Source of the DNA: an uncultured Pseudomonadales bacterium
GTDB lineage: Bacteria; Patescibacteriota; Microgenomatia; UBA1400; UBA1396
Reading direction: 5' to 3'
Length of the DNA: 64,000 bases
Assembly: GCA_964603945.1 (NCBI GenBank)
Contig: CAZRWP010000003.1
Coordinates: 6,830-70,829, forward strand
The position numbers were made by a program, and so were the translations under genes. Positions 14,592 to 58,395 of this stretch are shown piece after piece (within the stretch, counting starts at the first letter, position 1; each line of letters opens with the position of its first letter). Below the pieces are notes generated by a model, which was given only the letters and a program-made list of their open reading frames with translations, did not search any database and was not told the origin of the DNA.

Positions 14592-14597
14592 CCAACA

Positions 14598-19761: not shown

Positions 19762-20121
19762 ATGTTACCTAAAAACAGCCGCCCAAATTTGCGACAGAAT
19801 ACAGATTTTTTTAAAGAAGCTGAATCTTTGTCTAGCCGTCATTTGAGACTTTTGTTTAGACGGAATCCGGATGAGCAAAAACTTAAACTAGCCTTTATTG
19901 TTTCTAAACGTCACGGTGGAGCGGTTCAGCGCGTCAAAACAAAGCGTCAGCTGAGGCATGCGTCTATGGCTATCAAACAAGAACTTCCGGCACTTTTTGC
20001 CCTACCCTACTCTTCAGCCATATTAGTAAAAGGTCGTCCGCAAGATTATCAGCTATATAAACAGGAAATAGAACAGCTTTTAAGTAAACTGCAGAATTAT
20101 TACTTAAAAAACACTGTCTAA
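19762..20121 (+). CDS. rnpA: Ribonuclease P protein component
   Basis: 119 aa basic protein following rpmH; the RLRLLFRR motif region. Confidence 0.8.
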   Translation: MLPKNSRPNLRQNTDFFKEAESLSSRHLRLLFRRNPDEQKLKLAFIVSKRHGGAVQRVKTKRQLRHASMAIKQELPALFALPYSSAILVKGRPQDYQLYKQEIEQLLSKLQNYYLKNTV

Positions 20122-32573: not shown

Positions 32574-33113
32574 ATGAGTAACGAGCGAAATACAGAAATA
32601 CCACCGCTTCTTCATCGATTGCAAACCGAATCAAATGAAGTCGGAGATAAAGATTTAGGGAGTCCTTCTGGCGAAGATCAGCTGGAAATGTTGTTGGATG
32701 AGCTAAGTGCCATGGCTAATCCGCTTGGAAATTTAGCCCAGCCAGATTTGAGCCCAAAACAACAGGTGGCAGTAAGCGGATTTTATGATGAAGTGGATAA
32801 AAAAGAGCTGGAGGTAATGGAAAATATTAAAAGGGCAATTAGTACAGCCGCCGATCTGGATGAGTTGTTTAGGAATCTAAAACCTCTTAAACGTCATCTC
32901 AAAACTTTGATTGAAAATAATGAAAACAGCAATGACAGACAGCATGAAATTGTGGTTGAGACAGTTATTGGGCCGTTACTGGCTAATGAAAAATTAAAAC
33001 CTTGGCACCGCAAAGTTATTTCAGCACTGGCTAATACTGATCTGTTAAGTCAATTAAATACAAGGTTTTTAGATAGTGGTCGTCTAGATGATTACTTGTC
33101 TAATCAATCTTGA
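32574..33113 (+). CDS. hypothetical protein
   Basis: 179-aa ORF; no motif recognised. Confidence 0.35.
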   Translation: MSNERNTEIPPLLHRLQTESNEVGDKDLGSPSGEDQLEMLLDELSAMANPLGNLAQPDLSPKQQVAVSGFYDEVDKKELEVMENIKRAISTAADLDELFRNLKPLKRHLKTLIENNENSNDRQHEIVVETVIGPLLANEKLKPWHRKVISALANTDLLSQLNTRFLDSGRLDDYLSNQS

Positions 33114-35578
33114 GTTGTATTTTTGTCTTCAAATCCCGATTGCCCAACTGATCTAGCTTGCCACTGACTGGCTTCATACATTTGTTCAACCGAGACAACA
33201 TATCTTTCTGGGGTTGCTGGTGCTTGAGCCTGCTCGCCTTCAGGCGGATTTTCTTCTCCCTCTTGAGGTGTGCTGACACGCTGGCAGTCATAACAATAGT
33301 CGCGTGTAAATGGGTCGGTTAGCAAAACGTGCTCTTCGAGTTTTAATTTGTCGGTGGGGTCGCCTTCACGGGCGGGCAATCCGGTTTGTTCAGCAATCCA
33401 AGTTTGATGCCAGACATTTTCAGGGGCATCTGGTTGAGTGCCTTGCCAAAAGTAATCGGTGGTCATTTCGCAGGCCGGTCCAGCCGGATTGGGCAGGGCG
33501 CCAGAGCGGCGGCAGAATGAAGCTTGGACAACTTGTTCCGGCTGGGCCGGCCACTCACTTGGTTCTCCTTCATGATAATTCTCCAAAAGATAACTCATAA
33601 TGCCGTTCCAAATTGGGGCGGCTCCGGTGATTCCAGAAACTAAGTAAGGGTTCATAGCAGTGTTATTGTTGTTGCCCACCCAAGTAGCCACGACATAATC
33701 TGGATTGTAACCTATAGTCCAGTTATCGCGCAGGTCATTGGTGGTGCCGGTTTTGGCGGCGACTTTATAGCCAGGCAAGTAGAGGTTGGAGCGGGAGCCA
33801 AAAGCTGAGGAGCGAGCTTGGTTGTCAGTCAGAATATCATTCATGAGCCAGGCTACTTCGCGGTCCAAGACTCGTTTGATGTTGTCGGGGTCATTACTAG
33901 CGGCCGCCGCAAAATCTGGCTGAGGTCGGTCGGTGGCGTCGCCGTCTGGAGTTAAAAATAGCTGTTTTTCTACTTCCTGACGACGCTGGTCGGGGTCAAT
34001 TTCATACAAAACATTGCCTTTATAATCTTCAACTCTTAAAAGGGAGGTGAGCGGGACCTTGACACCCTCATTAGCCATAACGCCATAGGCGGTAGCCATT
34101 TCGGTCATGGGAATTTCGGCGGCGCCCAGGCCAAGTGAAACACCATAGTTTTCAGCGGTTCTAAAAGTGGTAATGCCCATGGCTGAGCCAACTTCAATTA
34201 AGCCGGGCACAGTATTAATGGCTGTAACTTTCACAGCTGGCAAATTATATGAATTAGCTAGTGCTTGGCGCATGGTGACTGGCCCATGATAACTGCCGTC
34301 ATAGTTGCGGGGACAATATGTGCTACTTCCGGCGGCTTCAAAACAAGTAGGAATATCTAACAGCATTGATCCAGGCGTGAGCTTGCGCAATTGAAAGGCG
34401 GTGGCCAGATTAATTGGCTTCATGGATGAACCAGGCTGGCGCGGGCGTACGGTCATGTTGATTTTACCTTCTGAGGTGGCGTTGAAATAATCGCGGGAAC
34501 CTACCATCGCTAAAATTTCGCCGGTACCTGGCCGAGTCACTAACGCTGAGCCATTGCTTATTTTGTGGCGCTCTAAATTATCAATTTCAGCTGACACTGT
34601 GGCCTGAACAACTTCCTGTAAATCTAAGTCCAAAGTGGTTGTAACGCGCAAGCCGCCGCGCTCCACAACAGCTTGTCCATACTCTTCAATCAGCTGGTCG
34701 CGGACGTAAAACACAAAGTGTGGCGCCTTGATATCAATTCGGGGCTGAGCAAAATTAAGCTCCTCTAGCTTAGCCGCCTCTGCTTCCTCTTTTGTTATGA
34801 ATTTTTCCTTGGCCATACGGTCTAAAACGGTAGCTTGGCGCGCCTTACCCATTTCTGGAGAACTGCCAAAAGGTGAGTAGCGAGTTGGTGATTGGGGCAG
34901 TCCGGCTAGATAAGCCGCTTCGGCCAGGGTTAGATCTTTAGCTGATTTATCAAAGTAAGTTTGGGCCGCCGCCTCGATTCCCCAGGCGGTGCCGCCATAA
35001 GGAACGTAGTTTAAATACATCTCTAAAATATCGTCTTTGGAATAGCGGATTTCGGTGAAGGTGGTTAAAACCGCTTCTTTAATTTTTCGCTCAAAAGTTC
35101 GCTCACGTGTTAATAAAGAAACTTTAACTAATTGCTGGGTAATGGTTGAGCCACCTTGCAGGCTTTCACCGCGAAGATTATTGTAAAAAGCACGCAAAAT
35201 ACCAACATAATCCAAGCCAAGGTGACGATAAAAATTTTGATCTTCAATGGCAATTGTCGCCTGAACTAGATAGGGAGGTAGACTTTCCAACTCAACCGGC
35301 GTGCGGTTAGTATCAGCAAAAATCTCATACAAAAGCTTGTTATTACGGTCAAAAATTTGGGTGCTGACAGCAAAGCCTTCATTAGTTTCCAGTTTGTTAA
35401 CTGACGGCAAGTCCTTAATAAAAGTAATAGTCACAACCAATAATCCAATTAAAGTTGAGATCGCAACCAAACCCAAAGTTTTTACCAGCATTGATTGGTG
35501 GTTCCACTGAGTTAAGAAATACCGGCCAGCCTTTCTCGGCTGACGGATTGAGCGATTGAGTTGTTTCCACCACTTCAT
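33104..35578 (-). CDS. Class A penicillin-binding protein (PBP1A-type transglycosylase/transpeptidase)
   Basis: N-terminal TM anchor; GT51 motif region QATIAIEDQNFYRHLGLD; SxxK transpeptidase SSMKP; C-terminal low-complexity tail. Confidence 0.85.
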   Translation of the reverse strand: MKWWKQLNRSIRQPRKAGRYFLTQWNHQSMLVKTLGLVAISTLIGLLVVTITFIKDLPSVNKLETNEGFAVSTQIFDRNNKLLYEIFADTNRTPVELESLPPYLVQATIAIEDQNFYRHLGLDYVGILRAFYNNLRGESLQGGSTITQQLVKVSLLTRERTFERKIKEAVLTTFTEIRYSKDDILEMYLNYVPYGGTAWGIEAAAQTYFDKSAKDLTLAEAAYLAGLPQSPTRYSPFGSSPEMGKARQATVLDRMAKEKFITKEEAEAAKLEELNFAQPRIDIKAPHFVFYVRDQLIEEYGQAVVERGGLRVTTTLDLDLQEVVQATVSAEIDNLERHKISNGSALVTRPGTGEILAMVGSRDYFNATSEGKINMTVRPRQPGSSMKPINLATAFQLRKLTPGSMLLDIPTCFEAAGSSTYCPRNYDGSYHGPVTMRQALANSYNLPAVKVTAINTVPGLIEVGSAMGITTFRTAENYGVSLGLGAAEIPMTEMATAYGVMANEGVKVPLTSLLRVEDYKGNVLYEIDPDQRRQEVEKQLFLTPDGDATDRPQPDFAAAASNDPDNIKRVLDREVAWLMNDILTDNQARSSAFGSRSNLYLPGYKVAAKTGTTNDLRDNWTIGYNPDYVVATWVGNNNNTAMNPYLVSGITGAAPIWNGIMSYLLENYHEGEPSEWPAQPEQVVQASFCRRSGALPNPAGPACEMTTDYFWQGTQPDAPENVWHQTWIAEQTGLPAREGDPTDKLKLEEHVLLTDPFTRDYCYDCQRVSTPQEGEENPPEGEQAQAPATPERYVVSVEQMYEASQWQARSVGQSGFEDKNTTQD

Positions 35579-38835: not shown

Positions 38836-39333
38836 ATGCAATGTCCATATTGTGGCAAACAACAAAGCTCAGTTTTAGAGAGCCGATTAGCCGAAGATAA
38901 CCGTGCTATTCGCCGGCGTCGTGTTTGTGAATTCTGCGAGAAACGTTTTACCACTTATGAGCGTGTTGAGGGTGTCGATTTGGTCGTCACTAAGAAAAAT
39001 GGCGTTAGTGAATCTTTTGACCGTGAAAAAATCCGCAAGGGAATCGTTAAAGCCACCTGGAAGCGACCGATCGCCATGTCAGATATTGATGAATTAATTG
39101 ATGACGTGGAGCGCCGCTTGCGACAGCGCAAAAACACTAAGGTAAAAAGCTGGGAAATCGGCAATTTGGTCATGAATCGCCTGCGCAAGCTGGATGCAGT
39201 GGCCTATCTGTTATTTGCTTCGGTTTATAAAGATTTCCAGTCATTTGAGGATTTTGAAGAAGAAATCAGTCGTCTCCGCACCGGGAGCGACCAGGACTCT
39301 AATTCACCAGAAATAGGAAAGGGTACGGCATGA
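38836..39333 (+). CDS. nrdR: Transcriptional repressor NrdR
   Basis: MQCPYCGKQQSSVLESR...CEFCEKRFTTYE zinc ribbon plus ATP-cone; start at the internal Met of the longer ORF-track entry. Confidence 0.85.
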   Translation: MQCPYCGKQQSSVLESRLAEDNRAIRRRRVCEFCEKRFTTYERVEGVDLVVTKKNGVSESFDREKIRKGIVKATWKRPIAMSDIDELIDDVERRLRQRKNTKVKSWEIGNLVMNRLRKLDAVAYLLFASVYKDFQSFEDFEEEISRLRTGSDQDSNSPEIGKGTA

Positions 39334-42300
39334 TTCAGAAGGCTACAGCTAAAACCAAAAAAACATCATCTGTTGAGACCGGGCGAAAGGCAAAGGTCAA
39401 GCAGACCCGCCGCAATCAAAACACTCAAAAAACAGCCGTTAATGGTCGGACAAGCAATGGTCAGCTGAGTAAAAGTCAGGCAAAAAATGGTCATTTAAGT
39501 AGCGGACACTCGGCCAATGGCCACTTAACCAAAGCTCAACTTACTAATGGTCACGTCAAGCAGGCTACAACTGAAGTAAATCTAGATTCAGCTGTGTCGC
39601 CACGTCCATACCGCCAAAAAATGAAGTTCACGGAGCGCCAGCTGGATCCCGGCATGGGAATGGCGGTGGCGCGCCGCACCTATCTGCGCAAGAAAGAAGA
39701 TAAAAATGGCAAGGAAAAATGGGAAACCTGGGGTGAGGTAGCTGAGCGCGTCGCGCGCGGGAACACCGCCTTGCTGGGCAAGAAAAAACTTCAGCACCAA
39801 AAAGATGAATACAAGTTGCTCAAAAAACACATCGCCAACGGCTCAATTTTAATGTCCGGCCGCCACCTACAACACGGCGACGAGACTCAGCCAGGACGCA
39901 ACATGGAGGTTTTTACTAATTGTCTAGAAAAAAACACCAAGATTCTCACTCAAGAATATGGTCCAATTGAAATTGGCAAGTTGGCTGGCAAAACAATTAC
40001 CGTCAAAGCGGCTGATGGTGAATGGCGTCAAGCGGAAGCAAAGTCCTATGGAAAGCAAAAACTTTACAAAATTACCTTTGTCCCAAAAACTGGAACAAGC
40101 AATTACTCACACACTGTAGTTGCCACTAGAAATCACCGTTGGTTTTTAGAAGATGGCTCTGTTACTGATAATCTACAAGTTGATGATAGCCTGGATGTAG
40201 CTCCACAGCTCGAAGCTGAAGCTCCTGAAGGAATTCAGCATGGACTAATTTTTGGCGATGGTTCAGCTCACAAAAGCAGAAAAGATTATCCGGTGGAAAT
40301 GGTTTCTCAAGGAAGGGAATATCCAGCCATTCGATTGTGTGGAGCAGATAAGAAATACTTAGAATACTTTGAAGATGAATCAGTTAGTTATCCCCCGCAT
40401 GCCAATGGAGACCCTGTTGTTTACGTTGGCAGAAAATCATTCCTTAAAGATTTGCCATACACACTTGATTCAAGTTATATTGCTGGCTTTATAAAAGGCT
40501 GGTGGATGGCTGGCGGTTCTAAGACATTGACCAATACACAAAGCATCGAGATTTCTACCGTCCGCGAAGATGCCATTGCTTGGCTAGAAGATTACGCCGC
40601 TTATGCTGGCTACATAATCACGTCTCACCGGATTATAGAAAGAAAAGAGCAAGATGGCAGTTATAAAAATGGGAAGCCCTTGCATTGCATTCGACTATCT
40701 CAGACCGCAATTAGAAAAGTTGCCTCCATCGAACCTTTTGGTGAAGATGAGGTTTATTGTGTTGAAGAACCGGTGACAACGGGGTTTGTATTGGCCAATG
40801 GATTATTGACTGGTAACTGCTCCACCGCCTCCAATTCCTACCTTTTGTTTTATTTGTTAATGAACGGTTCCGGCGTCGGTCGCGCCTATGACGACGATAT
40901 GTGCATTGTGGACTGGGATAACATGCCCAATCTGCGCTGTGTTTTGTCGGATGAACACCCGGATTTTGAGTGGGGTAAAGATGAAAGTGTCCGTGACGCC
41001 GAGCACAAATACGGTCACGGTGACACCATTCATTGGTTTGAGGTGCCGGATAGCCGCGAAGGCTGGGCGCAAGCCGTTGAATTGTTAGAGGTAATGGCTT
41101 TTGAGAAAAAATTCAAAAATGACCTGGTGATACTAGACTTTTCTAAGGTTAGAGCCAAGGGCGCGCCGATTCACGGTATGCAGGATCGGCCGGCCTCTGG
41201 GCCTAAACCATTAATGAACGCCATTGAGCGGGTGGCCACCGTTAAAGGAGCTGGCATGTCCGCCTGGAAGCAAGCTATTTTTGTTGACCACTATCTAGCC
41301 GAATGTGTGTTGGTGGGTGGCGCGCGCCGGAGCGCGCGCATCGCGACCAAGGTGTGGACCGATCCGGAAGTTTTGGAATTTATTAACATCAAGCGAGGCG
41401 GCTTTTTGTGGAGTGCCAACAATTCTGTGGCCGTAGATGAAAAATTCTGGGAGCAAAAGACCGCGCACGCCCGAAAAGTTCTTAAAACAATTTTAGAGGC
41501 CAGTTACCATGATGGTACGGGTGAGCCCGGTTTTGTTAATCAGCACATGCTGGTCCAAAATGACGACGGCTACAGCGGTTACAGCGACGGTAAATACGCC
41601 GAGAGCAAAAAATACAAACCAATGGCGCGCACGGAAAAACTTTTAGCCAAGGTTGCCCGCAACGCCGGCGCTAAGGTCTATCACCAAATCCCCAATCCCT
41701 GCGGCGAAATTACCCTTAACATGCTGGGTGGCTACTGCGTGATTGGCGATGTGGTACCATTTTTCGCCCCTAGCTTGGATGCGGCCGAAGAAGCTTTCCG
41801 TGCCGTAACCCGCGCTTTAATTCGCGTCAACTTAATGGACTCTTTGTATAATCGTGAAGTTAAACGCACCAACCGAATTGGTGTCGGCATGACTGGTATT
41901 CACGAGTTTGCTTGGAATGCTTTTGGTTACGACTTCAACGATCTAATTGATGAAGACAAATCTAAAGATTTTTGGCTGACCCTTAATCGCTTTAAACGGG
42001 CAGTTGATGAAGAGGCGACCAAATACGCCAAGACAATTGGTGTTAATGTGCCTCACACCAACACTACCATCAAGCCATCCGGAACAGTTTCCAAGCTATT
42101 TGCCCTGACTGAGGGCGCTCACTTACCCAGTATGCGCGAGTATATTCGTTGGGTGCAGTATCGGTCTGATGACGCCTCGCTCGACTCTTACCGCGAGCAA
42201 GGCTATCCAGTCAAAGAGCTTAAAAGCTATACTGGTTCATCAGTGGTAGGTTTCCCCACTCAACCGATGATCTGCCGCTTGGGCATGGAAGACCGCTTGG

Positions 42301-42686
42301 TCACCGCCGCCGAGGCTTCACCGGAAGACCAATACAAATGGCTGATGTTACTTGAAAAATACTGGATTGTTGGCGTGGATGATGAGGGAAATCCGCTGGA
42401 AGATACTGGTAATCAGGTGTCTTATACTCTCAAGTACAATCCACAAAAAGTGACCTTTGAGGAGTACGCTGACATGGTCAAAAAATACCAAAGTCAGGTC
42501 AAATGCTGCTCAGTTATGCCTCAGCAGGACAATACCGCTTATGAATATCAGCCGGAACAGCCAGTCACCAGTTCAGAATTCATGAAGATCATCCGCGAAA
42601 TTGAGAAGGCCGCCGATGCTGGCGACCTCCACGAGGACATCGACTACGAACACCTGAAATGTTCCACCGGCGCCTGCCCGATTTAA
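39330..42686 (+). CDS. Ribonucleotide reductase catalytic subunit (probably class II/NrdJ-like) containing an intein and an N-terminal NGHL-repeat extension
   Basis: Active-site NPCGEI (VYHQIPNPCGEITL); no NrdB nearby; ATGA overlap with nrdR; a 299-aa insertion is bounded by Cys198 and Asn496|Cys497. Confidence 0.75.
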   Translation: MIQKATAKTKKTSSVETGRKAKVKQTRRNQNTQKTAVNGRTSNGQLSKSQAKNGHLSSGHSANGHLTKAQLTNGHVKQATTEVNLDSAVSPRPYRQKMKFTERQLDPGMGMAVARRTYLRKKEDKNGKEKWETWGEVAERVARGNTALLGKKKLQHQKDEYKLLKKHIANGSILMSGRHLQHGDETQPGRNMEVFTNCLEKNTKILTQEYGPIEIGKLAGKTITVKAADGEWRQAEAKSYGKQKLYKITFVPKTGTSNYSHTVVATRNHRWFLEDGSVTDNLQVDDSLDVAPQLEAEAPEGIQHGLIFGDGSAHKSRKDYPVEMVSQGREYPAIRLCGADKKYLEYFEDESVSYPPHANGDPVVYVGRKSFLKDLPYTLDSSYIAGFIKGWWMAGGSKTLTNTQSIEISTVREDAIAWLEDYAAYAGYIITSHRIIERKEQDGSYKNGKPLHCIRLSQTAIRKVASIEPFGEDEVYCVEEPVTTGFVLANGLLTGNCSTASNSYLLFYLLMNGSGVGRAYDDDMCIVDWDNMPNLRCVLSDEHPDFEWGKDESVRDAEHKYGHGDTIHWFEVPDSREGWAQAVELLEVMAFEKKFKNDLVILDFSKVRAKGAPIHGMQDRPASGPKPLMNAIERVATVKGAGMSAWKQAIFVDHYLAECVLVGGARRSARIATKVWTDPEVLEFINIKRGGFLWSANNSVAVDEKFWEQKTAHARKVLKTILEASYHDGTGEPGFVNQHMLVQNDDGYSGYSDGKYAESKKYKPMARTEKLLAKVARNAGAKVYHQIPNPCGEITLNMLGGYCVIGDVVPFFAPSLDAAEEAFRAVTRALIRVNLMDSLYNREVKRTNRIGVGMTGIHEFAWNAFGYDFNDLIDEDKSKDFWLTLNRFKRAVDEEATKYAKTIGVNVPHTNTTIKPSGTVSKLFALTEGAHLPSMREYIRWVQYRSDDASLDSYREQGYPVKELKSYTGSSVVGFPTQPMICRLGMEDRLVTAAEASPEDQYKWLMLLEKYWIVGVDDEGNPLEDTGNQVSYTLKYNPQKVTFEEYADMVKKYQSQVKCCSVMPQQDNTAYEYQPEQPVTSSEFMKIIREIEKAADAGDLHEDIDYEHLKCSTGACPI
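39921..40817 (+). mobile_element. Intein with LAGLIDADG-type homing endonuclease motifs inside the ribonucleotide reductase gene
   Basis: Begins at CLEKNTKIL (Cys1), ends ...LLTGN followed by the extein Cys; internal motifs GLIFGDGSAHKS and AGFIKGWWMAGGS (LAGLIDADG-like). The penultimate residue is Gly rather than the usual His. Confidence 0.6.
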
Positions 42687-42739
42687 AGAGTTAAGTGCCA
42701 GTTTTGGTGTTAAGAAATTGCCATCCCAAACAGGCTATA

Positions 42740-45700
42740 ATGCTGATTGTGAGACGTTTGATAAAGCCTCTGTTATTGGCCTTGGCATTTTTGTTGTCGA
42801 TTCCCTCGGTGGCGCAAGCCGCTTGTGGCGAAGGCCAAATTGATTTGCTGGAATACTGGATGCCCAAGGGCAATACCTCTTACAACATGCTGTACTGCAC
42901 CACTTGGCCGGGCTTGCCCGCTAGCGGCCAGACAGTGGGTGGGACGCAGCGAATGCCGGATGCATTGTGGCAGCAGTATCGGGCGCAGGGAGCACCAGGC
43001 GATGGCGCTTTCATGCTGGATGGCGGCACGGATACCAATGGCAATCCTCAGTATTTTGTCTATTCTTATGACGCCAATAATATTTACTTTTTAGAAGACC
43101 AAGTTTGGGGTGGCCAATCCTGTACTGACGGTGGTGGTCCGGCTTTTTACCGAGTTATGAACGCCAGTAATGGTACATGGGGCTCGCCCTATCCCCGCTG
43201 TGTTACACCTGGCGAAACTTTTTCTACCAATGAACAAGCGGTGGCTTATTCCAAAGCTTCCTATAGCGAAGGTTTTAAAACTGCTTTAACAGGCGGAGCT
43301 TTGCCCCGGCCAGTTGCCTGTGAGAATCCTTTGGCTGGTGCTTCCACGCCATCTAAAGCCGTTGAGTTAGTCGATAATATTGGTTCTTCTGAAGCGGGTG
43401 TGCAGTGCTTGGATGAACCTTCGATTGCCTTTAAAGCAGTTGGTGGTTCTGGCTCTGGCGAAACAATGTATTTCACTAAAGGTTTTGGCATGACGGCTTT
43501 TGTGGCTAAAGAAGGCAGTGCTACTACTTTTCATTCGGCTTACCATGATCCAAGTTGTGCCTTTCCGCCAGATTTAAGTTGTAGTGAGGATGAGACTGGC
43601 AAGGCGCCGCTATTCATTTATCCGCAAAATAATAATCCAACTGACTGGAATAAATACCTGGCCAATTCTCAGGTTTATTGTGCGCCTGGTCAGGTAAATT
43701 GGCCTAAACTAGAAGGAACTTCGCCAAATCTGCAAAACTGTACACCTGCCAGTGGATCGGAGGTCGATCCCTTGGGTCAAGGAGTTATCAATACTGATGG
43801 TAGTGCCTGTGAACCTCAGGAATATCCGGTGGTTGATTTTGTGGAGTCTTATAATTTGCAGAATTTTACTTTGCCTTTGTTCCGTAATCAGTCGGGTGGA
43901 ATTAGTATTGAGTCTGATTTGTCCCGCGTGAATCCGGAAGATACCCTAGCTCAAGCCATCAAGCGGAATGCTCGGCCTGATTACGCACCCCAGTTTTTCC
44001 TGTCTTCGCCGCAGATGCAGTGTTTGAATGCGGTTCGTTATGTTAATTACGTTAATGATTTATGTGCCGAATATGGGCCTGAAAGCGAGGAGTGCTCAGC
44101 TAAAAAAGTCGTGAATTTGCCAGGTGGTGGCTTCCGCAACTGGGAGGCTGTGACCGCTCTGCTCACTGAAGATAAATGCCTGAACTTCACGCCGGAAATG
44201 GAACAAAACACCGATGTGGCTCAAATTGTCCGTAGCTTGCAAACTTATACTCCCAGCGCTTACAAGATGGGGTTTTTAGTTCAGCATAATTACCTGTTTG
44301 ATGGTGGGGCTAATAGTCTGCTTGGTCGCGGTCAATACTTGGTCAAATCAATTGCGGCTTGGTTAAAGGGCGACACCCAGCCAGATCCGCGGATTAAAGA
44401 ACACTTAGTAGTGGTGCCGGTTTGGTATCAATCAGGAATTACGACTAATGAATATAATCGAGACCAAATTGCCCCTTATCCAATCGATCCAGAGACCGTT
44501 GATCTGGAAAACGTCAAAGTCAGCGAAGACAATTTTAAGGGACCATTTTGGCAAACGTACGCGCCGGTTTTGCCTTTGAATATTCAGGAGGCAATCTTCA
44601 AAACCAAAGCTAAAACAGTTAAGGAAAATTATGAACTATTGATTGAGCGAGTCCGGCGGACCGATCCCAATGATATTTTGCCCTGTGAAGGCGATGAATG
44701 CATCCGAATTGACTCAGAATATCTGGAAGAATTAAAACAGTCTTTCCCGGCTAGTTTCTTCAAAGATCAAAGTAATGAGCAAGTTTATGGATTTTTGATT
44801 GCCTTGCAGAGATCCATTGTCGCTCGGATCAATTCTGGCATTCAAGAAACTGAGGAATATATTCCGCTAGACGAGCGTCCAGATGACTACGATGAGCCTC
44901 CGGGACCGTTGTCAGCACGAAGCTTTAATCGCTGTGAGGTTGATCCCAAAAACATCAAGTTCGGTGAGAGCGAAACTGCCAGTGATATTAATTACCAAGC
45001 TCTTCAGCCGTTAGCCAATGAAGATGAAGACCCGGCCTTAGTTGCTAAAGCCATTGACGCAATTCGCAATGAGTTTCGAGCCAAGATTCTTTGGCAAGAT
45101 CCTGACTTGGAACACCAATTTCCCAAAAGTTATAGCTACATAATTTTGCCCGATGAATCAATCGATATCGACATTGCTCAAGCCTATGTCACCCCAATGT
45201 TTTTGAGTCCGCAGATGTATGACTCTATTATGAGTGGCGAGAATCCGCTCTACCCGTGGAAAACCGATGGCGGTGTAGATGGCGGCATGGGTGGTGCAGG
45301 CAGTGGTGATTCAGCCGATTATCTGTCGGCCTTTTTGCGAACTAGTGGCTATGACCGTCAATATTCATCAGAAGAGCGAGGGTACGTTAAGATGGAACGG
45401 ATTATCACTCAGTACGGCTCAACTTGTACAACTGCCCCGCCAGGCGGAGCCATCTCAATTGATCCAACTGAACCAGTCTGTACCTGCAATATGGAACGCG
45501 TGGCCGACCCAATTATTGAGGACATGGGCTGGGAAGAGTATCCATCAATTCATGACAGCGAAGAGCCGACCATTACCAATGGCTGTCGCAAAGTAGAGTA
45601 CATTCAAAAAGAAAAAAGCACCGTCAAAGCGATTGATAGTTTGCCGGAGGATAATCCCGATTCTAATTTACAAGTACCAGGGAAAACAATGGCCCTGCAT

Positions 45701-46636
45701 GAATATTTGCGACGCATGGCTTTTACACCTCACTATTTAATTCAAAAGTATGAAGGCTTGGAACAGTTTTACCAAAATGGCGTGCCGATTCCGGAATTTC
45801 TCAAAAAGTCTCTGGACAAGCTGAGCGGATATTTTGCCCAGCTCCAAAATATGTCTAGTACTTATGGCGAGGCAAACTCAGCTGGCACTTGTGGCACAGT
45901 TTATGTCAATAGGAGCAAAGCCCAGCAGTACGCTGATGAAATTCGTCAGCTAATGAGTGCAGAAATGAAAGCAGATATGTTGACCCAGTACCCACGAGCC
46001 CAGTTGTATGGCGAGTGCGGTGGTCAGGATTGTGTTGAATTTATCTTGAACACTGTTTTGGAGTATCCAATTTGCAATGGCGATAGGTACGTAAATCCAT
46101 ATATGGCGATTGCGATTGGCATGACTGAGACCGGCGGTCTGCAAGGGATTGGCGAAAATAATACCGGCTTTCACTTTGGTTGCAGTCCAATTGCTTTTTC
46201 GGCTTATAAGCCTGGTGCAACTCACAATGGACTCCAGTGTGTAGTGGAAAACGCCACGCCAAATCAGGTAATTAATCCACTGCTTGTGTGGAATGAGGAT
46301 GTCTTAAATTCTTGTGTTGATGTTAGCGGTGGCGCGGTGCCAACTTACGGCACGGTTCGGCGGGAGCAGACAGTTGAGGATGGTCTAGCCTGTATGGTGG
46401 CCACGTTCCATCGCTACTGCCAGAGCATTGAAGGTGACAATATCGATGTTTACGCGATTCAGGGTGATCCCAATGTAGCTGAAGACATGTATGGTTACGG
46501 TTCTTTCCCAGGTCCTTTGGTCAGCAGATTTAATGAATTGATTGTTTTAGCCCAAAGATCCGGTACCATGACTCCAGCCTTGGAAGCCAGAATTAAAACA
46601 TCAATTACCGAGATGACTTCTGGGTGTACTAATTAA
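42740..46636 (+). CDS. Giant secreted/cell-surface Cys-rich protein (~1298 aa mature precursor), function unknown
   Basis: Sec signal peptide MLIVRRLIKPLLLALAFLLSIPSVAQA|ACGEG; many Cys residues throughout; no catalytic motif recognised. The ORF-track start at 42695 is a GTG upstream of this ATG. Confidence 0.6.
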   Translation: MLIVRRLIKPLLLALAFLLSIPSVAQAACGEGQIDLLEYWMPKGNTSYNMLYCTTWPGLPASGQTVGGTQRMPDALWQQYRAQGAPGDGAFMLDGGTDTNGNPQYFVYSYDANNIYFLEDQVWGGQSCTDGGGPAFYRVMNASNGTWGSPYPRCVTPGETFSTNEQAVAYSKASYSEGFKTALTGGALPRPVACENPLAGASTPSKAVELVDNIGSSEAGVQCLDEPSIAFKAVGGSGSGETMYFTKGFGMTAFVAKEGSATTFHSAYHDPSCAFPPDLSCSEDETGKAPLFIYPQNNNPTDWNKYLANSQVYCAPGQVNWPKLEGTSPNLQNCTPASGSEVDPLGQGVINTDGSACEPQEYPVVDFVESYNLQNFTLPLFRNQSGGISIESDLSRVNPEDTLAQAIKRNARPDYAPQFFLSSPQMQCLNAVRYVNYVNDLCAEYGPESEECSAKKVVNLPGGGFRNWEAVTALLTEDKCLNFTPEMEQNTDVAQIVRSLQTYTPSAYKMGFLVQHNYLFDGGANSLLGRGQYLVKSIAAWLKGDTQPDPRIKEHLVVVPVWYQSGITTNEYNRDQIAPYPIDPETVDLENVKVSEDNFKGPFWQTYAPVLPLNIQEAIFKTKAKTVKENYELLIERVRRTDPNDILPCEGDECIRIDSEYLEELKQSFPASFFKDQSNEQVYGFLIALQRSIVARINSGIQETEEYIPLDERPDDYDEPPGPLSARSFNRCEVDPKNIKFGESETASDINYQALQPLANEDEDPALVAKAIDAIRNEFRAKILWQDPDLEHQFPKSYSYIILPDESIDIDIAQAYVTPMFLSPQMYDSIMSGENPLYPWKTDGGVDGGMGGAGSGDSADYLSAFLRTSGYDRQYSSEERGYVKMERIITQYGSTCTTAPPGGAISIDPTEPVCTCNMERVADPIIEDMGWEEYPSIHDSEEPTITNGCRKVEYIQKEKSTVKAIDSLPEDNPDSNLQVPGKTMALHEYLRRMAFTPHYLIQKYEGLEQFYQNGVPIPEFLKKSLDKLSGYFAQLQNMSSTYGEANSAGTCGTVYVNRSKAQQYADEIRQLMSAEMKADMLTQYPRAQLYGECGGQDCVEFILNTVLEYPICNGDRYVNPYMAIAIGMTETGGLQGIGENNTGFHFGCSPIAFSAYKPGATHNGLQCVVENATPNQVINPLLVWNEDVLNSCVDVSGGAVPTYGTVRREQTVEDGLACMVATFHRYCQSIEGDNIDVYAIQGDPNVAEDMYGYGSFPGPLVSRFNELIVLAQRSGTMTPALEARIKTSITEMTSGCTN

Positions 46637-46697: not shown

Positions 46698-47084
46698 ATG
46701 ACATTATTAAATAAATTAGCCAGTCCTTTTCAGGCTGGCGACAAGGGCAAAGTAATTGGCGTTGTTGAGCCGATTTCGATTCGTCGTCAGGACGGCTCAG
46801 AAGAAGAGGGGGTTTTGGCCAAAGTTGACACAGGTGAAGACTACTCTCAAATTGATAAAAAATTAGCTCAGGAGTTAGGTTTATATAGTGCCGAGTTGGT
46901 GGTTGATCGGATTACCACTGAGATTGATGGTCGCGAGCGACTAGTTGAACAAATTGAGGTTAGCTTCACGATAGATGGCGATTGGTTGAACTCCCGTTGG
47001 TTGGTCTTAGATTTAGCCGATGAAAAACAGTTAGTGGTGCTGGGGAAAGAGGACTTAAGAGGGTATTTGGTAAGAATTCCGTAG
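46698..47084 (+). CDS. Retropepsin-like aspartic peptidase fold protein (COG4067/RimB-like)
   Basis: AKVDTGEDYS (D-T-G) and C-terminal VVLGKEDLRGYLV resemble the LLGRxxLxG ending of this family. Confidence 0.45.
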   Translation: MTLLNKLASPFQAGDKGKVIGVVEPISIRRQDGSEEEGVLAKVDTGEDYSQIDKKLAQELGLYSAELVVDRITTEIDGRERLVEQIEVSFTIDGDWLNSRWLVLDLADEKQLVVLGKEDLRGYLVRIP

Positions 47085-47210: not shown

Positions 47211-48392
47211 ATGACACTCGATCATAATGGCACTAAAAAGAAAGTAGCGCTGGGATTGTCCGGCGGTGTTGACTCGGCCGTTTCAGCTCACTTACTAAAA
47301 TCTGCTGGTTATGAAGTGACCGGCGTATTTTTGCAGTGCTGGCGCGCCCCTGGCTGCCGCGCCGAAGATGACCGCAAGGACGCCTTAGCAGTGGCGCTAG
47401 ACCTAGACATTCCTTTTGAAGTATTGGATTTTGTGGAGGCTTACCGCAATCAAGTGGTGGAACAATTTTTTGAAGATTATCGGCGCGGTCTGACACCTAA
47501 CCCAGATGTCTGGTGCAACACCGCCATTAAATTTGGCCTGTTTTATGACTGGGCAATGGCCAACGGCTTCGACGCTGTGGCCACTGGTCACTACGCTCAG
47601 ATTGGCGAGCATGATGGGTCACTTGCTCTCGTGCGTGGCGCCGACGCCAAAAAAGACCAGTCTTACTTTTTATACCGCACGCGCCAGGATCAGCTGGACC
47701 ACATCATGTTCCCAATTGGTCATCTGCAAAAATCAGAAGTGCGCCAGGCCGCCCAAGACCGCAATATTGCTGTGGCCGACAAGCCGGATTCTCAAGGCAT
47801 TTGTTTTATCGGCGACATTAATGTGCGGGAGTTTTTGCGTGATAATTTAGGCGAAAAACCAGGCGACGTTTTGGACACCGACGGCAATGTGATCGGCCGA
47901 CACCAGGGTGTATGGTTTTACACCATTGGCCAGCGCCATGGATTTGACCTTTTTCCCAAATTCCGCGCCCAAAACAATGAATGGAAACACGTGTTGCCAC
48001 CCATGTATGTTATCAGTAAAAATGCTGATGAAAACACTATTATTGTAGGTTATGGCGTAGAAACAACGCGCAGTGAAATAGAGGTGCGTGATGTATTTTG
48101 GCGAAATCAGAACTTGAGCAATTTTAATTTACAGAATCCTCAAAAAGAGCATCAGCAGAATCTTCATAATGAACATCAATCGACTGACAATTCCAAACCA
48201 ACACCAATTAAGGCTCGCATCCGCCACGGCGGCGAGCTCTACCAAGCTGATTTTATCTGGACAGATCCAAATAAATCCAGTGGTAAATTAAAATTTGCCG
48301 AGCCAGTCAAAGGCCTGGCTCCTGGCCAAGCGGTAGTGTTTTATGACAACCAGGACGACTCAGTGTGCCTTGGCGGCGCGCAGTTGGGGTAG
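47211..48392 (+). CDS. mnmA: tRNA-specific 2-thiouridylase MnmA
   Basis: PP-loop LGLSGGVDSAV; catalytic Cys region CFIGD; ~390 aa with a low-complexity insertion near aa 300–330. Confidence 0.85.
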   Translation: MTLDHNGTKKKVALGLSGGVDSAVSAHLLKSAGYEVTGVFLQCWRAPGCRAEDDRKDALAVALDLDIPFEVLDFVEAYRNQVVEQFFEDYRRGLTPNPDVWCNTAIKFGLFYDWAMANGFDAVATGHYAQIGEHDGSLALVRGADAKKDQSYFLYRTRQDQLDHIMFPIGHLQKSEVRQAAQDRNIAVADKPDSQGICFIGDINVREFLRDNLGEKPGDVLDTDGNVIGRHQGVWFYTIGQRHGFDLFPKFRAQNNEWKHVLPPMYVISKNADENTIIVGYGVETTRSEIEVRDVFWRNQNLSNFNLQNPQKEHQQNLHNEHQSTDNSKPTPIKARIRHGGELYQADFIWTDPNKSSGKLKFAEPVKGLAPGQAVVFYDNQDDSVCLGGAQLG

Positions 48393-50299: not shown

Positions 50300-51799
<1,500 letters not shown>

Positions 51800-51891
51800 T
51801 AAGGAGTTTGAGGTGGAGACTCACGCCTCTTTCCTCGCTCGACAGCAATGTCAGCAAAAACTCCAAGACCCGTGGACATAATTGCCCGGGC

Positions 51892-51909
51892 CATCCTGTC
51901 AGTTTGTGT
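51892..51909 (+). other. 3' half of the 16S precursor processing stem
   Basis: See the 5' half-stem feature (50233–50250). Confidence 0.7.
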
Positions 51910-51956
51910 GGTGTTTATTGATAAACGCTGTGATCTTTTACTTTTTAAAATTGATG

Positions 51957-51986
51957 AAAAGCGCTCTAGGGGCGCTTTTTTCATAA
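51957..51986 (+). terminator. Intrinsic terminator after the 16S rRNA (AAAAGCGC-TCTAGGG-GCGCTTTTTT)
   Basis: GC stem with T-tract ~160 nt after the 16S 3' end; implies the 16S is not co-transcribed with a 23S. Confidence 0.6.
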
Positions 51987-52089
51987 TTATTTTGCCAGAA
52001 TTTTAATTTGTTATTGATGATTATGCTTAAATTCTAACCATAGCTGATGAAATCAGTGATATCATAGGGGCAAATTAGAGAGGGCGAAT

Positions 52090-52449
52090 ATGGGAGAAGG
52101 TTTAGGAGATGGCGGTGGGGCCAGTCAGCGACGAGAAAGAGCTGAGAGAGATAAAAAACTAATTAATGTACGCGTTCAGTTTCCAAACAGAGACAGATTG
52201 TCGACGATGATATTTGGTCATGGCATAATTGAAAGTAACCCGCAGGCGCTTGTTCTAATTGATAGAATTGGAGGCCAATTACTTTCCGCTGAGCAATTTG
52301 TTGATGTCTGGATTGAAGTATTTAACGGTAATCAAAGGCAAGATCTAAATAATATTATGGGATTGTTTGAACTTGGTCAGCCTTTTCAACAAGAAGTTCG
52401 GAAAATACTCGGGCAAAAATTGATGGATTCTTACCTATCCACCCGTTAA
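52090..52449 (+). CDS. hypothetical protein
   Basis: 119-aa ORF between the 16S and the HD-domain gene; weak support. Confidence 0.3.
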   Translation: MGEGLGDGGGASQRRERAERDKKLINVRVQFPNRDRLSTMIFGHGIIESNPQALVLIDRIGGQLLSAEQFVDVWIEVFNGNQRQDLNNIMGLFELGQPFQQEVRKILGQKLMDSYLSTR

Positions 52450-52496
52450 ATAATTGGGGTAATTAAGTTGTTTTTAATTTAGTCTCGTTATTTGTT

Positions 52497-53027
52497 TTAA
52501 CGGTTAAACACTTCAATTAAAAAACCGACGTGCTCGGCTAATGGTTTGTCGATGAGTTGAGCGCCTTGCTCAATGTCGTCGCGGCTGACATTAGCGGCAA
52601 AACTTTTGTTTTTGAGTTTTTTATTAACGGATGACCATTTCATGCCGGCAAATTTGGCCGGTCGCACCTTGGCTACCGCGTCTAAAAAGCCGCAAATTTC
52701 ATCACAGGCAAACAAATAGCGTTCAATTTGGGTGTCGGGTTGTTGGCCGGTGCGGTCAGGCGCGTGGGCGGTGATGGCCGCAATGATTTCAGCTGGAACG
52801 TCAGCTTGGGGCAAAATGTCGTTAACAGCTTTATTGGGGTGTTCATCCGGAAACTGTTCCCAATCAAGATCATGCAAAAGGCCGGCGATATACCAGGAGT
52901 CAGTATCCTGATTAAGATTATTAGCGTAGGCTTCCATGGCCTGAGCCACCATCTGACAGTGCCGGCGAAGCGAGGGATTTGCAATGTATTTTTCCATGAG
53001 TTGCTGAGCTTCTTGACGGGAGATCAT
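52497..53027 (-). CDS. HD-domain metal-dependent phosphohydrolase
   Basis: The H...HD motif (IAGLLHDLDWEQ) and downstream D; 176 aa. Confidence 0.6.
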   Translation of the reverse strand: MISRQEAQQLMEKYIANPSLRRHCQMVAQAMEAYANNLNQDTDSWYIAGLLHDLDWEQFPDEHPNKAVNDILPQADVPAEIIAAITAHAPDRTGQQPDTQIERYLFACDEICGFLDAVAKVRPAKFAGMKWSSVNKKLKNKSFAANVSRDDIEQGAQLIDKPLAEHVGFLIEVFNR

Positions 53028-53233
53028 AGGGGTTAGGATAAACCCTAAAGACTAATAGCTCAAGAGCGACTAATAGTGATTAATTTATCTGCTTTGTGCA
53101 ATTGAGCGCAATCGGCCCAAGGGTTTATATGGATACTTTTGCAATTACAATGGCCCGATATTCCTTTTAGGCAAAGTTTTGTTACAATACGCTGTATGCT
53201 TGCAAGCCTGGTCGTGGCTAGTTTGCAACCCAA

Positions 53234-53307
53234 GAGAGTATAGCTCAGTTGGTTAGAGCGCAGTCCTGATAAGACTGAGGCCCCTGGTTCGAGTCCAGGT
53301 ACTCTCA
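53234..53307 (+). tRNA. tRNA-Ile (anticodon GAT)
   Basis: Acceptor GAGAGTA/TACTCTC, D-arm AGCTCAGTTGGTTAGAGC, anticodon loop CTGATAA, T-arm GGTTCGAGTCC; no encoded CCA. Confidence 0.9.
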
Positions 53308-53527
53308 CATCCTTCTTTCCCCTTTTGCTCCACAAGGAAGGCTAAAGCCTTGGCTTTCGTCGCAAAAGGCAAAAGAAGTTTCTAGGTTTATTTCTGAGTT
53401 GGTCTAGAGTCCAATTGGCTAGAATGCTAAAAACATTTCTGCTTTTTTGTATGTCTCATAAAATATGGTATTACTAAATTATTAAAGCGTAGCGGCAATC
53501 TCCCCTGATATAATAACCTTCTTAGCG

Positions 53528-53603
53528 GGCCCATAGCTCAGTTGGCTAGAGCGCTTCATTTGCAATGAAGAGGTCAGGAGTTCGAGTCTCCTTGGGTCCA
53601 CCA
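53528..53603 (+). tRNA. tRNA-Ala (anticodon TGC) with encoded CCA
   Basis: Acceptor GGGCCCA/TGGGTCC with the G3:U70 Ala identity pair, anticodon loop TTTGCAA, T-arm GAGTTCGAGTCTC, 3' CCA. Confidence 0.9.
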
Positions 53604-58007: not shown

Positions 58008-58309
58008 AAGTTTGCAGATGTACCAATAGCATTATATCTGAACAAAATTGTTTTTGTGATTTATTAGTGGTTATTTGCTGATTGTATCTGTCTCATTTAT
58101 TTGCTAACTTTTAATTTGCTGTGGAACATAGTGAAATTCTATGACTGTGCCGCAACGGTGATTCCAAACACGGAAAGTCCGATCTTCAGCAAAAGAGAAA
58201 TCTTGACGAGCATCGAGGAATTATTGTCGGCATATATCTGAAAAATTAGCCGAAAATAATTTAAACAAACGACCTTTATTTTGGACAAACCAAAAATAGG
58301 TCAACCGAT

Positions 58310-58331
58310 GCTCCCTTAAGGGAGCTTTTTT
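58310..58331 (+). terminator. Orphan intrinsic terminator on the + strand (GCTCCC-TTAA-GGGAGC followed by TTTTTTGTTT)
   Basis: Perfect 6-bp GC-rich stem, 4-nt loop and T-tract; no + strand CDS upstream in the 300-bp gap. Confidence 0.55.
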
Positions 58332-58395
58332 GTTTACCACAGCCGATAATTGTTTTGGCTTGAGGGTGTTTTCCAAAAAGTCAGGAGGAATTAAT

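Follow-up and report, generated by a model that had tools for sequence, protein, structure and literature searches.

The gene at positions 42740-46636 (+) of the window, the whole stretch of 64,000 nucleotides that was analysed, encodes a protein of 1298 residues that combines a signal peptide, a variable N-module, a conserved core of about 720 residues and a variable C-module. The gene is modular and carries a signature of recombination, and its core is under purifying selection. Our reading, to which we give roughly even confidence, is that the product is exported by Sec, stabilised by disulfides and modular, and that it works outside the cell, with exchangeable heads directed at external glycans or surfaces. 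We define the family here as a cysteine-rich secreted protein of about 1300 residues that is linked to a ribonucleotide reductase (RNR) gene in Woesebacteria-like Patescibacteria.

The open reading frame begins at ATG 42740 and ends with the stop codon at 46634-46636. An upstream extension of 15 codons (42695-42739, +), starting at GTG 42695 with a weak AAAGAG upstream, is possible; the mature protein is identical with either start, and in the 98%-identical homolog P0001 the gene call begins at this same ATG 42740. The original prediction placed this GTG in overlap with the RNR stop, but that stop lies at 42684-42686, which leaves a gap of 8 nt. That the frame might be two genes is contradicted by more than 20 independently assembled homologs of the same length and layout. 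The Sec signal peptide that had been proposed was recognised in the sequence of residues 1-27 (42740-42820, +). It reads MLIVRRLIKPLLLALAFLLSIPSVAQA followed by AC. Its n-region is basic and its h-region hydrophobic, an AxA site is present, and cleavage is predicted after AQA27. Tat export is unlikely because the RR at residues 5-6 is not kept in homologs.

The signal peptide is the only window above 1.5 in the hydropathy scan of the protein; all other 19-residue windows score 0.87 or less (Kyte-Doolittle, whole protein), which means that there are no further hydrophobic segments. A check for anchoring signals had been suggested, and it returned no LPXTG, no C-terminal transmembrane segment and a poor lipobox. 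The C-terminus (...EMTSGCTN) shows none of the parts of a sortase anchor, namely LPXTG, a hydrophobic stretch and a basic tail, by regular expression and hydropathy scan. At the lipobox site the sequence is Q-A-A-C29, whose -3 residue is atypical compared with [LVI][ASTVI][GAS]C. The pattern fits P0005 (LAAC) and P0004 (MAAC), but not P0007, P0010 or any member with a type-B or type-C head. C29 is restricted to members with a type-A head, the type of the present protein, where it occurs together with C53 and C154. Because of this co-occurrence and the even total of cysteines, a disulfide role of C29 is favoured over lipidation.

Cysteine makes up 32 of the 1298 residues (2.5%), compared with 79 of 16060 (0.49%) in the 42 other ORFs of the window. 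This is a 5-fold excess over the expected number of about 6, with a Poisson P of around 1e-12 by our own arithmetic. The count was 24-34 in all 30 aligned full-length family sequences, and the pairs C334/C357, C1112/C1227 and C194/C281 were gained and lost together across homologs. Every cysteine context quoted beforehand was present (CGEG at 29, CTTWPG at 53, CTDGGG at 128, CVTPGE at 154, and CENPLAG at 194). Of the CxxC-like pairs, close pairs do exist as CxxxxC (649/654, 1093/1098) and CxC (914/916), whereas a true CxxC does not occur. The signal peptide, the even cysteine number and the three co-varying pairs support the earlier view of a secreted, disulfide-rich, extracellular protein, in which the cysteines would form disulfides outside the cell.

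Daniels et al. (2010, PMC2823432) have described an even-cysteine pattern in exported proteins of monoderms with oxidative folding, the Actinobacteria. The present protein resembles these disulfide-bonded proteins in its even and raised cysteine number within an otherwise cysteine-poor proteome. It differs from the monoderm systems in that no DsbA- or VKOR-type oxidase was found in the window; more generally, no disulfide-forming enzyme or thiol oxidoreductase was obvious in these 64 kb. The cysteine density, equal to 16 putative bonds, is also unusually high for a bacterial protein. About 16 putative disulfides imply an oxidative folding pathway so far undescribed in the Patescibacteria group.

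The cysteine content also bears on the idea of an S-layer protein or another structural component of the envelope. Such a role would suit a protein that is large, secreted, lineage-specific and without a membrane anchor. However, S-layer proteins are typically cysteine-poor, and 32 cysteines were counted here. Moreover, Pfam gave no SLH or other S-layer domain, and the enzyme heads found in orthologs do not suit a lattice protein, so that we consider this explanation very improbable.

The family is very small. An exhaustive profile search recovered 34 representatives among 1.84 billion, of which about 21 are full-length members with the same layout, all of about 1300-1430 residues. Where the flanks were readable, the member genomes were Patescibacteria, labelled Woesebacteria or Patescibacteria group. 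This lineage, with one relative on a contig of 1.08 Mb, agrees with the original prediction of a small-genome bacterium. The present protein gave a full-length match to the core profile of about 750 positions, including the invariant motifs, and its 98%-identical homolog P0001 scored 1004.6 bits (E 3.8e-297).

The family-defining core spans residues ~291-1010 (43610-45769, +), as delimited by alignments and the exhaustive profile search. About 80 of its residues are invariant, including KYLANSQVYCAP, FPLFR..GGISIESDLSR, YKMGFLVQH, VPVWYQSGI and PGKxxALHEYLRRMAFTP. Within it, a sub-region with four cysteines (residues 416-520; 43985-44299, +) reads APQFFLSSPQMQC...LC...C...C...YKMGFLVQH; all 30 sequences have C428, C442, C452 and C480, and this sub-region is the sole part kept in distant relatives of about 1100-1240 residues (hmmsearch alignments, P0039-P0042). 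The most conserved motif block lies at residues 800-839 (45137-45256, +) and reads IILPDESIDIDIAQAYVTPMFLSPQMYDSIMSGENPLYP, with L803, P804, D805 and E806 invariant. Its stretches are the most conserved patterns of the core and form invariant columns in two alignments. The AF2 model of the core is globular (pLDDT 60.6, pTM 0.64). Neither a sequence match in PDB (profile search) nor a fold match (Foldseek vs PDB) was obtained for it.

The protein had been described as having no recognisable domains and belonging to no nameable family, and this description held: the whole protein had no match in Pfam, NCBIfam, PHROGs or PDB (phmmer). Among all 20 aligned members, Pfam and NCBIfam returned only GH5/GH_cc matches, in the heads of relatives. 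Profile searches of PDB with the core, the type-A N-module and both C-types gave nothing. Structure prediction followed by Foldseek, which had been recommended, yielded AF2 models and no supported match in PDB or BFVD. No match reached E 0.001 (core vs PDB; N+C model vs PDB and BFVD), and the best ones had E-values of 0.007-0.1 with TM-scores of about 0.1 or less. A catalytic or binding activity could be assigned to no part of the 1298-residue protein. Because the core and the end modules are without relatives in Pfam, NCBIfam, PDB and BFVD, the core of about 720 residues and both end modules may be new folds.

The N-module, termed type A, covers residues 28-290 (42821-43609, +) and is an all-beta domain with 8 cysteines according to the alignment and the AF2 model m020956e759ca, which has 13 antiparallel strands and two helices at a pLDDT of mostly 80-95. 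Its invariant residues include E38, Y39, E119, D120, W123, R138, R153, E241 and K247. It had no Pfam match even at E ≤ 1 and no PDB profile match, and a metagenome scan for type-A heads in other architectures gave only a 98%-identical strain. Foldseek returned only weak LolA/ependymin-like matches (probability ≤ 0.41, E ≥ 0.02, rmsd 7-20 Å), namely EPDR1 (6jla/6jld/6e7o), LolA (4ki3/2zpc), VioE (2zf3) and OssO (7sfp). The open, 11-stranded beta-barrels of LolA and ependymin (EPDR1) lead the weak matches of its 13-strand model; an assignment to this fold is not supported.

In about half of the relatives, the N-module is a glycosidase of clan GH-A (GH5-type). The type-B heads exceeded the curated Pfam cut-offs for GH5/GH_cc (28.4 vs 23.5 bits; 24.1 vs 21), and matches to these families were also found in P0029 and in the distant relative P0040. 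In the alignment, the GH heads of relatives retain the NEP and GE[IL]G/TEIS (nucleophile-Glu) motifs. Homology to an enzyme family, which the original prediction had named as evidence against itself, is therefore present in N-modules of relatives (GH5-type) and not in the 1298-residue protein. We rejected its own head as a GH-A glycosidase because it had no Pfam match, its model is all-beta and not a (beta/alpha)8 barrel with an acid/base Glu in NEP and a nucleophile Glu on strand 7, and neither NEP nor GE[FI]G occurs in residues 28-290. Type-A and type-B heads are unrelated (hhalign probability 2%), and hhalign found no profile relationship between head types. The assignment of type-C heads to clan GH-A, based on 'GNE...TEFG' seen by eye, was unsupported by Pfam or hhalign.

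The replacement of the N-domain by GH5-type modules in about half of the relatives speaks for a head, enzymatic or binding, that can be exchanged. The family as a whole would act on extracellular glycans, for example the cell wall or matrix of a partner or an environmental polysaccharide, since the N-head of many relatives is a clan GH-A glycosidase with intact NEP and nucleophile Glu. Like modular secreted GH-A hydrolases (GH5, PF00150; Glyco_hydro_cc, PF11790), which carry accessory modules, the family is Sec-exported, extracellular and multi-module, with such heads in about half of its members. In contrast to them, neither the sequence nor the predicted fold of the present protein shows a GH module, no known family of carbohydrate-binding or catalytic domains matches the core or the C-module, and the heads are swapped at a single orthologous locus and not spread over paralogs.

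In line with the host attachment raised in the original prediction, the protein could also be a pure, non-enzymatic adhesin on the surface of an episymbiont; its heads would then serve for binding, and the GH-like ones in relatives would act as lectins. A secreted, large and disulfide-rich protein of a small-genome Patescibacteria lineage is consistent with this, as is the absence of a catalytic signature from its own head; head swapping and the recombination signature would fit diversification of host range or antigens. On the other hand, an anchor, whether covalent or in the membrane, was not found, the protein lacks the repeats or stalk-like regions that adhesins typically have, and the 720-residue core is globular in the model with its roughly 80 invariant residues. 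The catalytic NEP and Glu motifs kept in the GH heads of relatives point to hydrolysis and not to binding alone. On balance, we regard a pure adhesin as unlikely, though worth keeping in view.

At the other end, the type a C-module (residues 1011-1298; 45770-46633, +) is mostly helical and contains 10 cysteines (alignment; AF2 pLDDT mostly 80-92). It carries a nearly invariant E1130 (MTETGG), the motifs DG[LF][AG]C and YGY, and a conserved cysteine two residues before the C-terminus. No Pfam, PDB profile or Foldseek match was found for it. An hhalign comparison with the alternative C-type aligned the FY junction only. Six cysteine columns are common to the two C-types, and we therefore suspect from the sequences that they are divergent homologs. 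An SLT- or lysozyme-like C-module (SLT, PF01464) is unsupported, as no match was obtained in Pfam (E ≤ 10, both C-types), PDB profiles or Foldseek (PDB and BFVD) among the matches listed. Lytic transglycosylases have a catalytic Glu at the end of a helix; in the model, E1130 comes after helix 374-384, a likeness seen by eye only.

The gene is chromosomal, adjoins the RNR gene and lies about 25 kb from dnaA. It is flanked upstream by a class II (B12-dependent) RNR (39330-42686, +) and downstream by the MnmA tRNA 2-thiouridylase (47211-48392, +), which are conserved left and right anchors by Pfam and synteny. Between the gene and MnmA there is a small ORF (46698-47084, +) of 128 residues, without a signal peptide and with a sub-threshold retropepsin-like match. 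The order NrdR-RNR-gene-small ORF-MnmA was found in every locus with readable flanks (L001-L004, L006-L009 and L011), and it holds even in a 34%-identical relative. Presence/absence polymorphism, for which a check had been advised, was thus not seen, as the gene occupied the same position in each of these loci; the polymorphism is one of module content. The neighbouring genes gave no functional hint. We also observed a class A PBP within the window, which indicates peptidoglycan synthesis by the organism.

With its conserved body, its variable ends and a small ORF directly downstream, the gene recalls polymorphic toxins or effectors, in which a variable toxic end is joined to a conserved region for delivery and an immunity gene lies downstream. 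However, the small ORF is present whichever C-module type occurs (128-130 residues, 43-98% identity), which shows no immunity-like co-variation, and on this ground the toxin-immunity arrangement was rejected. The six cysteine columns in both C-types suggest a single domain that has diverged rather than unrelated toxins. No known toxin, Rhs, LXG, CDI or delivery domain was found, and the N-terminus varies no less than the C-terminus. The probability that we would assign to this explanation is close to negligible.

Non-homologous end modules occur on close relatives whose cores are 54-79% identical. Compared with the closest distinct relative (L007), the 3' end of RNR was 94.5% identical, no match existed at 42687-43639, and identity was 79% from 43640 on, which places a recombination boundary at 43640 (+), codon ~301 (blastn vs P0002 contig, L007). 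For this pair, dS was 0.27-0.31 in the flanks (MnmA 0.31), whereas pS in the gene was saturated at 0.75-0.81, with a drop to 0.54 in its interior, and dN/dS in the gene was around 0.07. In a second independent pair the flanks had 0.55-0.63 against a core pS of 0.71-0.82, and in a strain pair a mosaic patch had a dS of 0.14-0.20 against ≤ 0.02 in RNR. The recombination result comes from these two informative pairs and the strain pair, synonymous sites being saturated everywhere in L001/L008, and the higher dS in the gene could partly come from a codon bias weaker than that of RNR. Neither silent cassettes nor paralogs were found near the locus in the window or in the 11 loci.

These patterns also bear on a housekeeping autolysin or wall-remodelling enzyme, which would act on the cell's own peptidoglycan or wall polymers in growth and division. 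A single-copy gene in a position fixed across the lineage, a core under strong purifying selection (dN/dS 0.07), peptidoglycan synthesis in the organism (PBP) and the lytic-transglycosylase-like motifs seen by eye in C-modules of some relatives all accord with it. However, head swaps between close relatives and replacement by alleles of saturated dS inside conserved flanks are abnormal for housekeeping enzymes. Modules that bind PG (LysM, SH3, PG_binding, SLH) were not found, nor did Pfam, PDB profiles or Foldseek give an SLT, lysozyme or amidase match; moreover, GH5 enzymes are not known to be muramidases. An autolysin is therefore improbable in our opinion.

The conserved body with exchangeable, non-homologous ends is reminiscent of phage receptor-binding proteins and tail fibres, polymorphic toxins and variable surface loci, and further likeness to recombining surface or target-recognition loci lies in sharp junction boundaries and allele replacement inside conserved flanks. 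Unlike such proteins, the present one shows no sequence or fold relationship to them, no co-varying immunity gene and no silent cassettes nearby. Because the end modules are repeatedly exchanged by recombination, a variable outside target is suggested. The fixed-position gene appears to have been overwritten repeatedly, wholly or partly, by divergent alleles, with the flanking housekeeping genes as anchors for homologous recombination. This would be expected of a factor, secreted or on the surface, that is under diversifying selection from a variable partner, for instance a host surface or a phage that uses the factor as a receptor.

Taken as an exported protein with exchangeable heads, it would leave the cell by Sec, unanchored and stabilised by roughly 16 disulfides. 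The core would perform the constant part of the job, probably as a scaffold or platform by which the protein is kept at the cell envelope or its heads are positioned, and the heads would set the target. In the present allele, the glycosidase head is replaced by an unrelated cysteine-rich beta-domain, which may bind or cleave a different external ligand. For this allele, both the targeting of glycans or surfaces and the role of the core are what we infer from the comparisons above.

A bolder extension, which we put forward as speculative and rather improbable, is that of a lineage-specific 'interaction device': a chassis of unseen fold, swappable heads that choose the partner cell or substrate, and a polymorphism kept by recombination, with a LolA/ependymin-like ligand binder as the present head. 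If this were true, the head could capture a host lipid or hydrophobic molecule needed by lipid-auxotrophic CPR bacteria, and the protein would be a new kind of determinant of host range or nutrient acquisition. The heads, of about 260-340 residues, are small enough to express, and metagenomes would allow their type to be correlated with the hosts that co-occur. Partner recognition by ultrasmall Patescibacteria, of which very few are cultured, is largely unexplained. The present protein is a concrete candidate for contact with a partner or substrate, as it is single-copy, lineage-wide and secreted, and has a conserved body whose heads, glycosidases among them, are swapped between close relatives.

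The giant Cys-rich protein of the window is encoded by a real reading frame of 1298 aa on the + strand, which opens with ATG at 42740 and closes with a stop codon at 46634–46636. We found the same single long ORF in more than 20 independent assemblies, which excludes a two-gene artefact. As originally predicted, the gene lies downstream of the class II RNR, whose stop codon occupies 42684–42686. The GTG of the longest ORF (42695), which had been thought to overlap this codon, is 8 nt past it; thus, the two genes do not overlap. The mature protein is identical from either start.

The N-terminus, MLIVRRLIKPLLLALAFLLSIPSVAQA/AC, contains the basic, hydrophobic and AxA parts of the Sec signal peptide that had been proposed. 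This is the sole hydrophobic segment; beyond residue 40, the maximum 19-residue Kyte–Doolittle mean is 0.87. A check for anchoring signals had been recommended, and no LPXTG-type motif was found in the protein. The residue directly after the signal peptide is a Cys in a weak lipobox (QAAC). Good lipoboxes occur in two relatives (LAAC, MAAC) and none in most relatives; lipidation, though conceivable, is not a family-wide trait.

The protein contains 32 Cys residues (2.5%) compared with 79 in the 16,060 residues (0.49%) of the 42 other window ORFs, about five times the local background. Every Cys context quoted in the original prediction is present, except that the CxxC-like pairs contain no true CxxC; the spacings are C-x4-C (649/654, 1093/1098) and CxC (914/916). 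Across the 30 full-length sequences that were aligned, comprising the window protein and 29 homologs, the Cys count is 24–34, and 13 Cys columns of the window protein are invariant in 30/30. Three pairs (C334/C357, C1112/C1227, and C194/C281) were gained and lost jointly among the homologs, which is the behaviour expected of putative disulfide partners. Daniels et al. (PMC2823432) have linked an even, raised Cys count in exported proteins of monoderm bacteria to a working disulfide-forming system. Like those bacteria, the organism has an even and elevated Cys count that is restricted to the exported protein. No oxidoreductase candidate for disulfide formation was found within the 64-kb window.

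Searches of the whole protein against Pfam, NCBIfam, PHROGs and, by phmmer, all PDB chains gave zero matches, in line with the claim that it has no recognisable domains. We retrieved 19 homologs, all of 1277–1387 aa, from 5.8 billion clustered proteins. An exhaustive core-profile search of 1.84 billion 50%-identity representatives yielded 34 matches at E ≤ 0.001. About 21 of these are full length (1300–1430 aa) and share the relative placement of the core; the remainder were fragments and four distant relatives of 1100–1240 aa. These counts point to a real family, yet a very small one, because only 34 of 1.84 billion representatives matched. The species-representative genomes that carry a member bear the titles Candidatus Woesebacteria or Patescibacteria group; two third-party assemblies are titled "Pseudomonadales", probably in error. 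One member is located on a 1.08-Mb contig of ERZ27297427. A secreted protein rich in cysteine receives a brief mention for Roizmanbacteria genomes (PMC6509639); we found no published description of the giant-protein family in the literature.

The order NrdR, RNR, giant gene, 128–130-aa ORF, MnmA is constant in every locus with readable flanks, even for relatives that are 31–39% identical. The giant gene is thus a fixed orthologous part of the chromosome of the lineage, not an accessory island. The window itself is core genome (dnaA, LeuRS, LepA, class A penicillin-binding protein, 16S rRNA, GAPDH, PGK). The penicillin-binding protein (33104–35578, −), with transglycosylase and transpeptidase, demonstrates peptidoglycan synthesis by the organism.

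Several other features of the window were recorded. The RNR (1118 aa) has a 299-aa insertion at 39921–40817 (RNR aa 198–496), absent from relatives of 789–849 aa. It lies inside the conserved FTN/CSTA motif, begins with Cys, ends with Asn and is followed by Cys. These are hallmarks of a putative intein; the penultimate residue, Gly instead of His, is atypical, and Pfam detected no intein or endonuclease domain in the insertion. An AdoCbl-II riboswitch (58107–58196) is of note because the RNR is B12-dependent; the 283-aa ORF downstream of it (58330–59181), without a Pfam match, may encode an uncharacterised cobalamin-related transporter or binding protein. The dnaA gene (16123–17760) is at the minimum of the cumulative GC skew (~18–20 kb), which places the probable replication origin within the window, ~25 kb from the giant gene. 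A low-GC stretch (35–38% versus ~45%; ~12000–20000) adjoins dnaA. Its ORFs of 1100 aa (11289–14591, −; two Cys, no Pfam or PHROG match, no signal peptide) and 435 aa (14598–15905, −; no Cys, no Pfam match) form a segment near oriC that may be foreign or fast-evolving. The 16S rRNA gene (50300–51798) is followed by a 1.4-kb gap that includes an opposite-strand HD-domain ORF (52497–53027), and then by tRNA-Ile and tRNA-Ala (region 50300–53603). Neither 23S nor 5S rRNA was detected in the remaining 10 kb of the window; thus, the rRNA genes appear unlinked.

We then considered the architecture of the protein. The core (aa ~291–1010) is strongly conserved, with ~80 invariant residues in an alignment of 20 members. 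It is flanked by an N-module, or head (aa 28–290), and a C-module (aa ~1011–1298), each of which exists in several mutually unalignable forms. BLAST clustering gave head types A (eight members, including the window protein), B (12) and C (five), and C-module types a (18 sequences, including the window protein) and b (14); homolog P0016 stands alone. The type-B heads pass the curated Pfam cut-offs for clan GH-A (PF00150, 28.4 bits, cut-off 23.5; PF11790, 24.1, cut-off 21), and in alignment they keep an NEP acid/base motif and a GE[IL]G or TEIS nucleophile motif. The head of P0029 scores 29.8 as a clan GH-A glycosidase in Pfam. A similar pattern seen by eye in type-C heads ("GNE...TEFG") had no Pfam or hhalign support, and hhalign found no relationship of type A to types B and C. 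The four distant relatives keep solely the four-cysteine sub-region of the core (aa ~416–520), and one has a GH5 head; the head-plus-core design therefore predates the immediate family.

The AlphaFold2 model of the core (18 sequences) was moderate (mean pLDDT 60.6, pTM 0.64), and Foldseek found no credible match in PDB (best E 0.099, TM < 0.1). The N- and C-modules of the window protein, modelled jointly from an alignment in which each homolog piece had its own row, gave a good model (mean pLDDT 79.9). The predicted head is all-beta with 13 strands, mostly at pLDDT 80–95, and the predicted C-module is chiefly helical, mostly at 80–92. Foldseek gave zero significant matches for this model in PDB and BFVD, and module-by-module profile searches against PDB sequences were likewise empty. 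The weak top matches of the head recur on LolA/ependymin-type open barrels (EPDR1, LolA, VioE, OssO; probability ≤ 0.41), a likeness of the model that we take as a lead only. No relatives of the core or of either end module turned up in the libraries searched, and all three may be new folds. The C-modules of some relatives resemble lytic transglycosylases by eye ("LEVEGSP...GAVGPMGI"); every test of this was without support.

In a neighbour-joining tree built from the core, the head types are interleaved. Types A and B meet in the window protein and P0001 versus P0002 (core identity 75–76%), P0003/P0004 versus P0006 (76–79%) and P0005 versus P0008 (59%), and types C and B in P0015 versus P0020 (79%). 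Both modules differ between P0007 (Aa) and P0012 (Bb; 54%), and the C-module between P0024 (b) and P0026 (a; 61%). Against L007, the contig of P0002, DNA identity is 94.5% at the RNR 3' end; similarity is zero over 42687–43639 and returns at 43640 (codon ~301) at 79%. By Nei–Gojobori estimates, this pair has pS 0.225 and dS 0.27 at the RNR 3' end and 0.25 and 0.31 at the MnmA 5' end. Within the giant gene, pS is 0.75–0.81 with saturated dS at aa 301–900, then 0.62 (dS 1.33) at aa 901–1010 and 0.54 (dS 0.94) in the C-module; the small downstream ORF has 0.59 (dS 1.15). Where the giant gene can be aligned, dN/dS is 0.07. A second independent pair, P0015 (contig L006) and P0020 (contig L011), shows this pattern again, with non-homologous heads, core pS 0.71–0.82, and dS 0.55–0.63 in RNR and 0.56 in the small ORF. 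For the strain pair of the window and L009, which carries the 98%-identical P0001, dS is ≤0.02 in RNR and 0.14–0.20 at giant-gene codons ~200–800. In a fourth pair, synonymous sites were saturated everywhere. Taken together, the interleaved heads, the DNA boundary and the dS contrasts indicate that divergent alleles repeatedly replace all or part of the giant gene by recombination anchored in the flanks, with the core under strong purifying selection.

Between the window and L009, the first ~200 codons of MnmA (47211–47810) also have a raised dS (0.15, against 0.03 in the remainder); hence the recombination mosaicism extends past the giant gene. In the P0015/P0020 lineage, an extra 332–336-aa ORF between the small ORF and MnmA (L006 12563–13573; L011 6818–7816), absent from the window, is only 30–37% identical whereas the flanking genes are 92–98% identical; it is therefore a second hypervariable gene at this locus.

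Head divergence within each type mostly follows core divergence, so each head type resembles an old allelic lineage with occasional transfer; a few pairs are discordant, such as P0015/P0016 (0.81 against 0.60). No silent copies of any module were found within the window or the flanks fetched, and the only type-A head detected in a scan of metagenomes belonged to a near-identical strain. A housekeeping autolysin is quite unlikely, because heads are swapped between relatives and both peptidoglycan-binding and muramidase signatures are missing. A polymorphic toxin is hardly credible. The small downstream ORF (46698–47084; 128 aa, cytoplasmic, no signal peptide) comes after the giant gene in every case and is conserved regardless of the C-type upstream of it, so a pairing of toxin and immunity gene is ruled out; its retropepsin-like match is below threshold (PF13650, 22.1 bits, cut-off 24.3).

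The giant protein works most like modular secreted carbohydrate-active or surface-recognition proteins with recombining specificity modules. It falls outside the GH5, SLT/lysozyme, sortase-substrate, S-layer and polymorphic toxin groups because it lacks defining features of each, and an S-layer role is highly improbable. The analysis establishes the export signal, the Cys pattern, membership of the family, the fixed position, the modularity, the glycosidase heads of relatives, the recombination signature and the constraint on the core. On this basis, we regard the following reading as an even bet. The protein would be Sec-exported to the extracellular space and stabilised by disulfides, with the conserved core performing a constant task, for example as a scaffold or by associating with the envelope of the cell itself. 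The heads would determine the external target: many of those in relatives may hydrolyse glycans, and the beta-domain of the window protein may bind another ligand. A purely adhesive role, which we consider unlikely, would make binding the function throughout. The turnover of alleles points to a partner that varies: either the surface of a host or prey, or phages for which the giant protein is a receptor. The family is a concrete, testable candidate for the molecule with which a poorly understood lineage contacts its partner or substrate.
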